Source: an uncultured Clostridia bacterium (GTDB lineage: Bacteria; Bacillota; Clostridia; TANB77; CAG-508). From it: 40,222 nucleotides of DNA. The notes under the pieces are model-generated. The model saw nothing but the letters and a program-made list of their open reading frames with translations. It was not told the DNA's origin and did no database searches. The DNA lies in contig CALXWN010000001.1 of the NCBI GenBank assembly GCA_944392415.1, forward strand, positions 1 through 40,222. Reading direction: 5' to 3'. This document shows positions 13,881-23,264 of this stretch, piece by piece; within the stretch, counting starts at the first letter, position 1, and each line of letters opens with the position of its first letter. The translations under genes and the position numbers were made by a program.

Positions 13881-16800
13881 TTACAAGTTTTTTAATATTT
13901 TTTCAATATACTCTTTTGTAACAATTGGCCAACTAAAGTCAGCTTTATCCAAGAATTTTAATGTAAATTTATTAGTTATTTTTAAATTAGTTTTGTAAAT
14001 TAAATTCCTATCTTTATCTAAATCATTTAGTAAAACGCTTACTTTATCTGAATTGTTACTATTAAATAATAAATTGTTTAAATGTTCTTTAAACACTTCA
14101 TCTTTTACTATAGATATATCATATCCTAACTCATATAAATATTCAAGAAAAATATTTATATACAAATGATTAGAATTATATAAGTGAAGTACAGTCATTG
14201 GATAGGTGTAATATCTCATACAAGCTACAATAGATTCGGCAATTTTATCAACAGGACTAAATTCTACATAATTGCTAATCATAGATTCAGGTAATTCTTT
14301 CAAAAATAAGAATGCTTTTAATCTATTTAGAAATGCGTTATCGCTACTATTTTCTTGGAATTTACCATCTGTATATCTATTTGTAATATTACCAATTCTA
14401 AGAACAAGACCTCTTAACTTTTTATTTGCAATTTCTTCTAGCACGTATTTTTCAGCTTCAAATTTACTTCTTACATAAACATTGTCTAAAGGTTGATTAA
14501 TAAATAAATTATTTTCACCAAAATATATAGTCTTTTTTGGTGTATAACTACTAGGAAGTGATGTCATAGTATTTCCAGACACACTTATTGTAGAGGTTTG
14601 ATAAAATTCTTTATTAAACTCTTCACAGAATTTAACTAGATTTTTAACACCGATAACATTTATTTTTTCAAATTCTCCATAGTAGCCATAATGTTTAACA
14701 GAAGCGGCACAGTTTACAACTGTTTGAACTTCTTTTCCTAAAAAGCTATAAACATCACTTGAAGTTCCAAAATTGTCATTTGTTATATCACCAGCAATTA
14801 CAAATAATCTTTTACCAAATAGATTACTTAAATCACTTCCAAAATAATATTGGAATTTTCGTTTTAATTTGTTTTCAGGTGAAGTGCTAGGGTCTTTACG
14901 TATTAAACAATATATTTTTATATCATCTATTTTCAACAATTCTGCTAAAACGTGTATTCCTAAAAATCCAGTTGCACCAACAAGTAAAACATTTTTAAGT
15001 ATTTTTTGTTTAAGTTTCATACTTCTAAAGGTTGTGTTTTTCTTTAATAATTTGTCTATTTTTTTGAAATCCTTTTTAGCATATGTAATGACAGCAGTTT
15101 GCTTCATGTTATTTTCTATAAAATTAGCTAAACTATGAATGGTATTATTTTTAAACAAATCTCCATAATTAATATTGTAATTATGTTTCATTAATTCTAT
15201 TTGCAATTTTAAAGCACTTAAAGAATCTCCACCAATTTCAAAGAAATTATCGTCTATACTTATTTCTTCTAAAGATAATATTGTTCTCCATATATTTAAA
15301 ATTTTATTTTCCAATTCTGTTTTAGGAGCAACAATTTCCTTTGCTTCAAATACTGGCTCAGGTAAAGCTTTTCTGTCTATTTTTCCATTAGGTGTATACT
15401 TAAAGGTTTCCAATTGCACTAAATAACTTGGAACCATATAACTTGGAAGTTTTTTTGCTAAAGATTTTTTTAGAAGTGATAGTGAAACTCTTCCATCAGC
15501 AACAAAATATCCACACAAAATATCTCTACCTTGAACATTTTTTACTGTTACAACTGCAGATTTTACACCTTTATAACTGCATATATCTGTTTCTATTTCA
15601 CCGAGTTCTATTCTTAAACCGTGTATTTTTACTTGGAAATCAGCACGTCCTAAACATTCTAATTCTCCGTTAGGTAGGACCTTAGCTAAATCACCAGTAT
15701 TGTAAATTCTTTCGCCATTATACATTACATATTTTTCAGAAGTTAACTCTGGTCTATTTTTGTAACCTATAGTGACCCCATCACCACCTAGGTAAAGTGT
15801 ACCGGGTACATTATATGGTACAAAATTCATATCATTATCTAAAACTAATGCATGAGTGTTTGGAAGTGGTGTTCCAATAGTTATATTATTTGTATTTGTA
15901 AGCTCTTTTAATGTAGAACCAACTGTTGTTTCAGTAGGACCATACATATTATATATTCTTGTTTGAGAAACAGACTTTATATCTTTCAACAAATCTAAAG
16001 GGAATGGTTCACCAATTAGAGAAACGACCTTAAGGTTTGAAAGGTAAGGTAATTTGTCTGTCATTAACAACTTAAACTTAGAAGGTGTTGTTTGAATTAC
16101 ATCCACTTTGTTCTTTAAGCATAAATCGTTTAATAGAATTGGGTTGTTTTGGTCTTCGTTACTTGCCATAACCACCTTCATACCTGTACATAAAGGTAGT
16201 AAACTTTCAAAAACATATATATCAAAACACATAGTAGTAATAGAAACTATAGTTAAATTTTTTAAAGGCATATCGTGAAAAGTTCCACATATAAAGTTAA
16301 CTACATTTGATTGCTTAATCATAACACCTTTAGGCTTTCCAGTAGAACCTGAGGTATATATTAAATAAGCAATACTATCAGGAGTTTGATTTGTTTTAAA
16401 TTCCTTATAAGTTTTATAATTATTTTCATCATCTACTAAAACGGCTTTAACAGGAACTATATCTTTATATTTGTTTTCAGTTAAAATTACATTTACTCCG
16501 CTATCTTCAATGATATATTTAATTCTTTCCTCAGGATAGGTAGGGTCTATTGGTAAATATCCGCTACCTGATTTTAAAATGGCAAGTTGAGAAATGATAA
16601 GGCTATCACTTCTATCCATAAGCATACCTACAACTTCATTGTCTCCAAGGCTATGCAAATAATATGCAAGTTTATTTACTTTATCTTGTAATTCTTTATA
16701 AGTGTATTTTTTTTCTCCAAATACTAAAGCAGTTTTATTTGGTGTTTTCTTAACTTGTTTTTCAAATAAATCAATAATTCTGTCCTCTTTAGGATAGTTT

Positions 16801-21572: not shown

Positions 21573-23264
21573 ATGCTCGGAAAAAATTATGCAAATAATA
21601 TTGCATATAAGTACAAGAAAAATCCAGAAGAAAAGCCTGTAAAATACGTAGAAAAAAAGTATAGTCAAGTAGTGAAAGATGTAAAAGCTTTAGCCACTGC
21701 GTTATTAGATATGGGATTTAAAGGCAAAAGAGTTGCTTTAATTGGAGAAAATAGGTACGAATGGGTTATAAGCTATTTAGCGGTAACCTGTGGAGGTATG
21801 GTAATAGCACCATTAGATAAGGCACTTCCAGATAAAGAAATAACTTCATTAATTAAAAGAAGCGAAGTTGATGCAGTTATTTATGAAAAAAAACATCAAG
21901 AATTATTTGAAAAACTAAAAGCAGACTCAGAAATTAATTTAAATACATTAATTTGCATAAATGAAGAAGATGATACAGATAGCGAAACAATAAGTTTTGA
22001 GAGCTTATTAGAAAAAGGAAGAAAGCTAATAAAAGAAAAAAGTAAACTATATGATGAAATAACAATAGATGCTAATTCTATGTCAATTATGTTATTTACA
22101 TCAGGAACAACAAGCGCAGCAAAAATAGTAATGCTTTCACAAGATAATATATTAACAAATTTATATGCTTATCAAACTCATTTTAAAATAAATCAAGATG
22201 ATACATTGTTATCTTTTTTACCAATTCATCATACATTTGAATGTAGCATAACTATACTTTATGGATTTTATAGTGGAGCAACAATTGCATTTTGCGATGG
22301 ACTAAGATACATTCAAGCAAATTTAAAAGAATATGAGGTATCAATATTTGTAGCAGTTCCACTTGTGTTAGAAACAATGTACAAAAAAATTATGAAAGCA
22401 ATTGCAGACCAAGGAAAAACAAAACTTATAAATACAATGACAAAAATATCAAATGGCTTACTAAAAGTACATATAGATATTAGAAAAATAGTATTTAAAC
22501 AAATAGTAGACAACTTCGGTGGAAAACTTAGAATGGTGCTTTACGGAGCTGCATCATTAGATAAAGACACAATTATAGGGCTAAATAATTTTGGAATAAA
22601 CTCAATACAAGGATATGGACTAACAGAAACATCACCAGTATTAACAGCAGAAGCAGAAAATAAACATAAACCGGGTTCAATAGGTTATCCTTTAGACAAT
22701 GTAGAAATAAAAATAGATAATCCAGATAAAGAAGGAGTAGGAGAAATTCTAGCAAAAGGTCCAAATATAATGCTTGGTTACTATAAAGATGAAAAGAAAA
22801 CAAAAGAAGCATTTAAAGATGGTTGGTTTAGAACCGGAGACTATGGATACATAGATGATGAAGGATTTATATTTATAACAGGAAGAAAAAATGACATTAT
22901 AGTTTTAAGAAATGGAAAAAATGTATATCCTCAAGAATTAGAATTTTTAATTTCAAAACTTCCATATGTTGCAGAATGCATGGTATTTGCAAGAAACGAA
23001 TCAAATACAGATACAGCAATAGTTGCAAAAATAGTATACAACAAAGAAGTAATGGAAAAAGATTATCCAGATACTAAAAAAGAAGATTATGAAAAAATAA
23101 TTTGGAAAGATGTAAAAGAAATAAACAAAACATTACCAACATTTAAACATATTAAAAAAGTTATAGTTACAGATGAACCAATGATAAAAACAACTACACA
23201 AAAAGTAAAGAGAAACGAAGAAATTAAGAAGACAGAAAAAGAATTACAAAAAGTAGGAAAATAA
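21573..23264 (+). CDS. AMP-binding long-chain fatty acid--CoA ligase (FadD-like); native N-terminus appears frameshifted
   Basis: Adenylate-forming motifs MLFTSGTTSAAKIVMLSQ, QGYGLTETSP, FRTGDYGY, GRKNDIIVLRNGKNVYPQELE. ATG 21573 has no RBS. A strong RBS (AGGAGG) serves ATG 21518 in another frame, which encodes the expected N-terminus (see findings). Confidence 0.85.
   Translation: MLGKNYANNIAYKYKKNPEEKPVKYVEKKYSQVVKDVKALATALLDMGFKGKRVALIGENRYEWVISYLAVTCGGMVIAPLDKALPDKEITSLIKRSEVDAVIYEKKHQELFEKLKADSEINLNTLICINEEDDTDSETISFESLLEKGRKLIKEKSKLYDEITIDANSMSIMLFTSGTTSAAKIVMLSQDNILTNLYAYQTHFKINQDDTLLSFLPIHHTFECSITILYGFYSGATIAFCDGLRYIQANLKEYEVSIFVAVPLVLETMYKKIMKAIADQGKTKLINTMTKISNGLLKVHIDIRKIVFKQIVDNFGGKLRMVLYGAASLDKDTIIGLNNFGINSIQGYGLTETSPVLTAEAENKHKPGSIGYPLDNVEIKIDNPDKEGVGEILAKGPNIMLGYYKDEKKTKEAFKDGWFRTGDYGYIDDEGFIFITGRKNDIIVLRNGKNVYPQELEFLISKLPYVAECMVFARNESNTDTAIVAKIVYNKEVMEKDYPDTKKEDYEKIIWKDVKEINKTLPTFKHIKKVIVTDEPMIKTTTQKVKRNEEIKKTEKELQKVGK

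Follow-up and report, generated by a model that had tools for sequence, protein, structure and literature searches.

A two-module nonribosomal peptide synthetase (NRPS) is encoded in a 40,222-nt stretch of DNA from an uncultured Clostridia bacterium (contig CALXWN010000001.1, positions 1 to 40,222; hereafter the window). Its gene is followed by genes for a seven-transmembrane (7TM) sensor histidine kinase and for a response regulator that combines a receiver domain (REC) with an HD-GYP domain, and a divergent pair of genes, encoding an acyl-CoA ligase and a membrane protein, lies on its other side. We consider it likely that the first three genes form an operon to which the divergent pair is accessory, that the NRPS would produce an N-acyl dipeptide aldehyde, and that the kinase and the HD-GYP regulator would connect the locus to cyclic-dinucleotide signalling. 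The NRPS displays condensation (C), adenylation (A), carrier (T) and reductase (R) domains in the order C-A-T-C-A-T-R, with intact catalytic motifs and a starter-type first C domain, and the NRPS, kinase and regulator genes were found to be almost obligately linked in related loci.

The window has a composition of 27% G+C throughout, at which about 8.5% of random codons are expected to be stops. The NRPS gene lies in a single unbroken minus-strand open reading frame (ORF; 13881..21272, 2463 codons counted from the first ATG), and the chance probability of so long an open frame is about e^-217. Translation likely starts at ATG 21233 (MEKLMEL), since a GAGAGGA ribosome-binding site lies 8 nt upstream of this codon and the resulting 2450-aa protein agrees with the public gene call P0001; the first ATG (21272) sits upstream of the transcription start expected from the only nearby promoter-like site. 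An earlier reading of the sequence by eye (the original prediction) had described a 2450-codon minus-strand ORF with the order C-A-T-C-A-T-R, and both were recovered, the first when the ORF was recomputed and the second from the order of the Pfam domains (Condensation, AMP-binding twice, PP-binding twice, and NAD_binding_4) and from recomputed motif positions. Five of its seven motif positions (A1, A2, the serines of T1 and T2, and R) were exact, whereas that of C1 was off by 1 nt and that of C2 by 10 nt (Table 1). It had also listed a phosphopantetheinyl transferase (PPTase), an MbtH-like protein, a type II thioesterase and an obvious exporter as missing; in agreement with this, neither these nor a free acyl carrier protein (ACP) were found within the 40,222-nt window. 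By contrast, its description of the cluster as minimal did not hold, as the kinase and the REC-HD-GYP regulator just past the NRPS stop codon had been missed.

Table 1. Features of the NRPS locus, with positions in the window. C, condensation; A, adenylation; T, carrier; R, reductase.
Feature	Position	Strand	Remarks
NRPS gene, C-A-T-C-A-T-R	13881..21233	-	2450 aa from ATG 21233; ORF open to ATG 21272 (2463 aa); P0001 100% identical
C1 condensation domain, starter-type (lipo-initiation)	19863..21233	-	about residues 14-470; HHLISDAW at 20820-20843; BLASTP and profile scores
A1 adenylation domain	18345..19829	-	residues about 482-976; Stachelhaus code DMVLQGGACK; core motif IYTSGSTGTPKG at 19299-19334
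T1 carrier domain	18117..18296	-	FFDMGADSL; Ser1016 codon 18225-18227; Pfam and motif
C2 condensation domain, ordinary elongation position	16824..18053	-	HHIICDGSS at 17673-17699
A2 adenylation domain	15354..16766	-	residues about 1503-1973; YTSGSTGKPKG at 16326-16358; Stachelhaus code DIFQSIMVGK
T2 carrier domain	15108..15305	-	FFEIGGDSL; Ser2017 codon 15222-15224
Terminal thioester reductase R (NAD_binding_4)	13893..14990	-	GATGFLG at 14958-14978 (VGATGFLG at 14958-14981); YVRSK (Tyr2266, Lys2270) at 14463-14477
Sensor histidine kinase: HisKA_7TM (residues 10-229), PAS, DHp, HATPase_c	11994..13805	-	Pfam; 75 nt downstream of NRPS
Response regulator, REC and HD-GYP	10853..11905	-	Pfam Response_reg and HD_5; 88 nt downstream of kinase
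Intrinsic-terminator-like hairpin, 18 pairs and T run	10796..10835	-	directly after regulator stop codon
Promoter-like TTGAAT-16-TATAAT	21275..21302	-	just upstream of probable NRPS start; consensus match only
Promoter-like TTGACT-17-TATTAT	21374..21402	+	upstream of ligase; same hexamers in L002 and L026; consensus match only
Acyl-CoA-ligase-type ANL enzyme	21518..23264	+	ATG 21518 opens 21 codons in frame 0; 563-codon ORF 21573-23264 in frame +1
Membrane protein, 465 aa	23319..24716	+	55 nt downstream of ligase; no family match

The NRPS, the 7TM kinase and the REC-HD-GYP regulator probably constitute a three-gene minus-strand operon running from 21233 to 10853. No strong minus-strand terminator was detected in the gap between the NRPS and the kinase or in that between the kinase and the regulator, and the sole one in the block was the hairpin at 10835-10796. 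The HDVGK and HHERFDGRGYP motifs of the regulator are intact, and it matches the HD-GYP entries 5Z7C, 4MCW and 4R8Z of the Protein Data Bank (PDB); it is thus predicted to be a cyclic-dinucleotide phosphodiesterase.

A homologue search with the NRPS returned 1161 proteins at E<=1e-50, most of them C-A-T-C-A-T-R enzymes of 2400-2500 aa from gut metagenomes. The nearest genomes were metagenome-assembled genomes (MAGs) of uncultured Clostridium sp. (88-95% identity), and further relatives were found in human-gut metagenome contigs and in Clostridium sp. CAG:793. For four homologues (43-60% identity) and for the abundant CAG:793 homologue, the NRPS-kinase-REC-HD-GYP order was kept and the upstream genes were unrelated. 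Within the genome collection, wherever a fetched locus held both an intact NRPS ORF and its downstream flank, the NRPS gene was followed on its own strand by the kinase gene, and REC-HD-GYP came directly after the kinase in all of these loci but three (L018, L022, and L024). This linkage extended to single-module relatives (about 1440 aa) and to two Dehalobacter genomes.

The reverse test used 80 metagenomic loci picked by alignment of the kinase alone (39-62% identity). An NRPS R domain ended within 700 nt of the kinase start in 60 of the 67 loci whose upstream sequence reached 1.5 kb or more, and the seven others had a shorter NRPS-like gene directly upstream, so that an NRPS-like gene preceded the kinase in 67 of 67. 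The regulator was found downstream in 55 of the 68 loci with enough sequence on that side, and the median intergenic gaps in 52 complete cassettes were 14 nt (NRPS to kinase) and 77 nt (kinase to regulator). Four of the seven shorter genes were checked against Pfam (L096, L098, L102, and L104) and proved to be C-A-T-TE or C-A-T-C-A-T-TE synthetases, where TE is a thioesterase domain. With 429-479 bits, the N-terminal C domains of these TE-type cassettes were closer still to the starter domains of Bacillus, and a longer regulator (REC-DUF3369-HD-GYP, about 510 aa) was encoded with them. A starter C domain, between one and three modules, the 7TM kinase and the REC-HD-GYP regulator thus make up the invariant unit, and the release domain and the ligase vary.

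Several other arrangements were noted among these loci. Three further cassettes (L097, L101, and L103) are divergent and higher in GC like the four TE-type ones and are probably of the same kind, the TE ending having been confirmed by Pfam in those four, and the long DUF3369 regulator was also present after the single-module NRPS of Dehalobacter (L011 and L023). At L075 (25-9951), a three-module NRPS (3308 aa as called, its start being lost at the contig end) preceded the same pair of kinase and regulator. Serine recombinases or conjugative-element genes (TraG-like, FtsK-like, type IV secretion system pilin, and sortase) lay upstream of the cassette at L027 (4181-7266) and L112 (260-8479), a hint at occasional mobility of the cassette or its surroundings. 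No description of a cassette made up of an NRPS, a 7TM kinase and an HD-GYP regulator was found in the literature searched, the incomplete coverage of which makes this a weak sign that the linkage is unreported.

The first C domain (C1) starts at about residue 14 of the NRPS, with no carrier domain ahead of it. By BLASTP, it aligned end to end with the starter C domain of the surfactin synthetase SrfA-A (205 bits, E 5e-65, about 30% identity), whereas it scored only 82 bits against C2 of its own protein and C2 scored 90 bits against the SrfA-A starter domain. The SrfA-A reference was itself checked, and the identity of its N-terminal C domain was 98-99% to N-terminal C-A fragments of B. subtilis and 52% to lchAA. 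The PDB entry named "Surfactin synthetase" (8F7F) was rejected as a source of this starter domain, as it scored 41 bits against the SrfA-A starter C domain. The subtype was assigned from this BLASTP comparison and from custom starter profiles. A profile of 18 N-terminal C domains from outside the family gave 465 bits for C1 and 198 for C2, and a Bacillales-only profile (11 named sequences) gave 306 and 173 bits, respectively. When the Bacillales-only profile was applied to 87 two-module proteins of the family, the minimum for C1 (266) exceeded the maximum for C2 (243), with no overlap. The active-site motif HHxxxD is intact in C1 and was retained in all 87 two-module homologues examined, and the HHxxxDAW variant is common to the Bacillus starter domains P0140 and P0141. 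By these comparisons, C1 classes with lipo-initiating starter domains rather than with ordinary LCL domains, as the original prediction had proposed, and it has an intact active site. Starter C domains of the lipo-initiation type N-acylate the first residue, and N-acylation by this NRPS would follow from that general property and from family precedent.

Both A domains keep the motifs A3, A5, A7, A8 and A10, and both carrier domains hold the phosphopantetheine-bearing serine. Stachelhaus codes were read from an alignment of 259 A domains (this NRPS and 120 homologues) anchored on a GrsA-PheA fragment that was verified against 1AMU (residues 234-526 identical). Among first modules of the family, the A1 code is the most frequent one, and the A2 code resembles the Gly code DILQLGMVWK, with a Gly-type scaffold in which the pocket-filling positions are altered and the pocket is opened. 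DVWYLGGICK, the module 2 code in many relatives, has been reported as Met. The GxTGxxG motif, Tyr2266 and Lys2270 of the R domain were invariant wherever aligned in 76 family sequences (three are gapped at the Tyr/Lys positions). Matches of the R region in the PDB included the T-R didomain 6VTJ and the R domain of AusA, 4F6L.

The NRPS belongs, as judged from its domain architecture, R-domain motifs and source, to the known gut-Clostridia synthetases of (N-acyl) dipeptide aldehydes, and its product class is already documented. Three sources attribute N-acylated dipeptide aldehydes to the Clostridium NRPS cluster BGC0001686 (Guo et al. 2017, Cell 168:517; PMC8518294, PMC8210680, PMC12327764), and two of them describe ruminopeptin (rup, Ruminococcus bromii; Schneider & Balskus 2018) as an N-acyl Leu-Glu aldehyde (PMC8518294, PMC8210680). 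The core chemistry of the N-acyl dipeptide aldehyde proposed in the original prediction is supported by the sequence, but the compound class was not new. These enzymes share with the present NRPS two modules, a terminal R domain and an N-terminal C domain, the likeness being one of architecture and described product. The peptide made here may differ from theirs, as the codes DMVLQGGACK and DIFQSIMVGK had no match, and kinase and HD-GYP partners are not mentioned in the available, secondary accounts of the BGC0001686/ruminopeptin family. The abundant homologue P0042/P0156 was considered as the RupA of R. bromii and rejected, because its neighbouring genes point to Clostridium sp. CAG:793, and no Leu-Glu specificity was transferred from it.

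Two further systems help to place the NRPS. AusA of Staphylococcus aureus (A-T-C-A-T-R) has the A-T-C-A-T-R core and the R chemistry in common with it, but here a starter C domain precedes A1 in place of a free-amine, A-first start. AusA has a PPTase partner, AusB, whereas no PPTase gene lies in the window. The best NCBIfam model for the NRPS was that of AusA (NF047350), although the score of 1442 bits stayed below the 2500-bit equivalog cutoff and the best stretch covered only residues 854-2458. Because its amine would be acylated, the product would be unable to cyclise to a pyrazinone. The surfactin and lichenysin synthetases SrfA-A and LchAA resemble the NRPS in their lipo-initiating starter C domain. 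C1 aligns with that of SrfA-A and scores as starter-like on profiles, and surfactin biosynthesis likewise has no dedicated ACP; the identity is only about 30%, and the present assembly line, of two modules, terminates in an R domain rather than a TE. The acyl donor of surfactin is an acyl-CoA made by a CoA ligase and, since no dedicated ACP was found here either, the same route is likely for this NRPS.

A ligase that could serve this purpose is encoded divergently from the NRPS. The AMP-binding ORF noted there in the original prediction (21573..23264) is present and was confirmed by Pfam. Its best PDB and NCBIfam matches were malonyl-/oxalyl-CoA synthetases, MenE, 4CL and FadD13, all below equivalog cutoffs, and no fatty acyl-AMP ligase (FAAL) was among the matches at E<=1e-20. 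Such a ligase gene stood beside the NRPS in 6 of 39 complete related cassettes with enough upstream sequence, and homologues were also found at L016 and L043. These homologues are 44-58% identical to the ligase and adjoin NRPSs whose identity to the present one is only about 29-50%; they are either divergent (this clade and L043) or co-directional 20 nt upstream of the NRPS (L051, L055, L056, and L065, and similarly L016). The functional link drawn in the original prediction between ligase and NRPS is thus supported in that homologous ligases recur beside related NRPSs, but the ligase is optional. These comparisons favour an optional, lineage-specific helper that probably supplies acyl-CoA; as most cassettes lack it, the acyl donor may come from primary metabolism. 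Back-to-back promoters had also been proposed for the two divergent genes. Both are genuine 10/12 consensus matches, but such matches were no commoner in the window than in shuffled sequence (98 found, 102.8 +/- 10.5 expected).

The reading frame of the ligase is interrupted near its start. ATG 21518 is preceded by AGGAGG, and its 21 codons align with the N-termini of distant ligase homologues; the frame junction, CGGAAAAAATTATGC from 21578 (CGG-AAA-AAA-TTA), contains an A6 run (21581-21586), after which the body continues in the +1 frame. Removal of one A yields a continuous ligase of 581 aa with the expected junction peptide ...LLEYARKNYANNIAYK. This +1 junction recurs in the window, L001, L002, L004 and L026, which are five independent assemblies, whereas more distant homologues were continuous. 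In the body, the ratio of non-synonymous to synonymous substitution rates (dN/dS) was 0.05-0.12 at dS 0.12-0.38, indicative of purifying selection. Of the variants in leader codons 5-24, 8 were synonymous and 1 was non-synonymous when read in the frame of the leader, whereas either alternative frame gave 1 and 7, respectively. Leader and body therefore both appear to be translated, and these values argue that the ligase is not a pseudogene. Candidate routes of expression are +1 ribosomal slippage, transcriptional slippage losing one A, or an upstream ORF coupled to re-initiation at 21573, and the accessory ligase may be expressed via conserved +1 recoding at CGG-AAA-AAA-U.

A second gene in the window is split as well. 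The Mbeg1-like gene (PF11187; 6602-7674) consists of two overlapping ORFs broken at CTCAAAAAAAGTG, within an A7 run near 7142-7148, and is intact in L001, L003 and L111 (366 aa). An error of assembly or a mutation confined to this strain probably accounts for the split. A lineage-wide homopolymer slippage was considered as the cause of the ligase frameshift and rejected, since the Mbeg1-like split is specific to the window and so probably unrelated.

Taken together, a biosynthetic route can be proposed. A1 would load its amino acid on T1, where the starter domain C1 would acylate it with a fatty acyl group whose most likely donor is acyl-CoA. C2 would join the resulting N-acyl-aminoacyl thioester to a second amino acid, placed on T2 by A2. 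Reduction by the NAD(P)H-dependent R domain would then free an N-acyl dipeptide aldehyde, as expected from family precedent, and the acyl-CoA would probably be provided by the ligase where one is present. Most simply, the product would be the signal sensed by the kinase, and the kinase/HD-GYP pair would tie it to cyclic-dinucleotide signalling.

A more specific, and tentative, form of this proposal is that the NRPS is the signal synthase of a Firmicutes cassette resembling the Rpf system of the diffusible signal factor (DSF), its N-acyl (di)peptide being the ligand of the HisKA_7TM-PAS kinase, which would switch the REC-HD-GYP regulator and so set the levels of cyclic-di-GMP (or of cyclic GMP-AMP, cGAMP). 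The present NRPS would release the product as an aldehyde, and its TE-terminated relatives would release a free acid; as the TE-type cassettes keep the kinase and the HD-GYP regulator, the aldehyde would be dispensable and the lipo-peptide scaffold would not. The Rpf/DSF cluster of Xanthomonas (RpfB ligase, RpfF synthase, RpfC kinase, and RpfG REC-HD-GYP regulator; PMC8042644) shows the same clustering of gene roles, but its synthase is a crotonase and not an NRPS, its kinase is a hybrid whereas the kinase here is of the HisKA_7TM-PAS type, and the present locus comes from Firmicutes. By this comparison of gene roles, the locus is an analogue of the Rpf cluster and not a member of it. The Pvf system differs in its enzymes, as PvfC is a single A-T-R module that is not known to have a starter C domain, and the partner enzymes include the N-oxygenase PvfB. 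It nevertheless provides a precedent for a signal made by an NRPS, since the small products of PvfC act as autoinducers, although no cognate sensor kinase or HD-GYP regulator is named in the four-gene pvf cluster (PMC10194917).

The A codes of the family bear on this proposal. Across 48 complete cassettes (L001-L110), they were very diverse and included Val-, Thr-, Ser-, Gly- and Met-type codes, together with codes lacking an assignment such as DIYTVGI[IV]LK and DIFQ[TMI]AG[VI]FK. With the divergence of the regulator, the kinase core, the C1 scaffold and the A1 scaffold as controls, the divergence of the 7TM and PAS domains of the kinase tracked that of the A codes (partial rho 0.38 and 0.35, permutation p 0.001), with the reservation that significance is overstated by tests of the Mantel type when the sequences are related. 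Neither the kinase core nor the regulator tracked the A codes (0.085 and 0.04, not significant). This covariation between kinase input domains and A codes fits a pairing of ligand and receptor and is suggestive of it.

Several points weigh against the reading of the locus as a signalling operon with an acylated aldehyde product. The case for co-transcription of the three genes is made by spacing and by the terminator scan, part of the regional synteny (the downstream ABC-F, CorA and Mbeg1-like genes) reflects vertical descent, and the window contains neither a PPTase nor an ACP. No assigned specificity was found in the searchable literature for DMVLQGGACK or DIFQSIMVGK, and two-electron release (aldehyde) and four-electron release (alcohol) are inseparable from sequence. 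The ligase is absent from 33 of the 39 related cassettes, and in this clade codon 21 is followed by a break in its frame. The strongest competing explanation, although we regard it as rather unlikely, is that the product is a secreted inhibitor of host cathepsins or of competitors' proteases, a role already put forward for the published family of the gut. On this view, the pair of kinase and regulator would respond to some unrelated cue or would adjoin the NRPS by descent. The R domain is intact here, the inherited part of the synteny would fit mere neighbourhood, and family products are described as active against cathepsins and proteasomes in two sources (PMC8518294, PMC8210680). It would not account for a kinase subfamily with an NRPS-like gene upstream in 67 of 67 informative loci, nor for a linkage that spans Clostridium-like MAGs, Dehalobacter and higher-GC, apparently non-gut contigs with unrelated flanks. 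Cassettes of the TE type, without the aldehyde warhead, still keep the kinase and the HD-GYP regulator, and it is the kinase input domains, not the kinase core or the regulator, that co-vary with the A codes. Protease inhibition and signalling are compatible roles, however, and may coexist.

The other alternatives concern parts of the pathway. That the ligase and the membrane protein are unrelated to the NRPS, the former being a fatty-acid activation gene placed there by chance or a decaying pseudogene, seems unlikely: its absence from most cassettes, its broken frame and the chance level of the promoter matches would fit this explanation, but homologues with an identity of 44-58%, which is high for ANL paralogues, recur beside distant NRPSs in two arrangements, and the substitution patterns of body and leader are not those of a pseudogene. 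It is less probable still that C1 is non-acylating or a structural remnant, in which case an AusA-like free dipeptide aldehyde would give a dihydropyrazinone or pyrazinone. AusA is indeed the closest curated model, Ala replaces the Gly of HHxxxDG in C1, and the LCL domain TycC6 tops its PDB ranking. Yet the AusA model scored below its cutoff and left C1 uncovered, C1 keeps the HHxxxD core and shares its DAW variant with Bacillus starter domains, starter profiles score C1 far above C2, and C1 is starter-type with HHxxxD in all 87 two-module homologues; the PDB ranking, tried as a means of typing C1, was set aside as uninformative because it is blind to subtype, the genuine starter domain of SrfA-A also ranking TycC6 first. 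Most improbable of all, if by a small margin only in our estimate, is a four-electron reduction by the R domain that would release an N-acyl dipeptide alcohol. MxcG, the myxochelin synthetase and likewise an R-terminated NRPS, can reduce through to the alcohol. It was among the NCBIfam matches (700 bits), and sequence does not separate the two outcomes; against this, the AusA score was twice that of MxcG, and characterised gut-Clostridia relatives release aldehydes according to two sources (PMC8518294, PMC12327764).

Among the products of the neighbouring genes, the 465-aa membrane protein next to the ligase begins with a Lys-rich stretch and ends in a region of mixed alpha/beta type, with about five transmembrane helices predicted; its AlphaFold model was unusable (pLDDT 40). 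It is lineage-specific (L001, L002, L004, and L026, with a 42%-identical copy in L013) and fast-evolving, as its identity in L001 is 65-68% where that of the ligase is 99%. On the other side of the locus, the regulator and the ABC-F gene are separated by a gap that has a similar size in L001 and is absent in L111. A GC-richer, minus-strand small ORF of about 67 aa (MHKIDATAMF...) lies in this gap, within 10479-10790. It has a ribosome-binding site, a promoter-like site of its own at 10784-10755 and, at 10502-10479, a terminator hairpin very rich in GC; this ORF had no Pfam or Rfam match. A search of the leaders for riboswitches or other RNA elements with Rfam gave no credible match at 10380-10870, two tRNAs being all that it found in the window. 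Farther away, an operon for pyrimidine biosynthesis flanks the locus at 25958-30218 (pyrB, a short 98-aa pyrI, pyrF, pyrK, and pyrD), and a 285-aa minus-strand ORF (24958-25815) shows weak similarity to phosphoribosyltransferases. A HepT-like RNase gene (1903-2256) overlaps a gene for an MNT/Pol-beta nucleotidyltransferase (2237-2566) on the minus strand, beside tRNA-Lys (2627-2702), and the pair (1903-2566) looks like a HepT/MNT toxin-antitoxin system.

Taken alone, the NRPS is one more member of a family known for protease-inhibiting peptide aldehydes of the gut, and genome mining that draws cluster boundaries round the NRPS alone misses its conserved partners. For the native role of the family, the linkage offers a testable receptor candidate and a second-messenger output. 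If the signalling proposal is true, the peptide-aldehyde NRPSs of the gut regarded as makers of protease inhibitors would be primarily autoinducer synthases, and the diverse A codes that co-vary with kinase input domains would represent lineage "dialects". These results suggest that abundant metabolites of gut bacteria may act first as bacterial signals.

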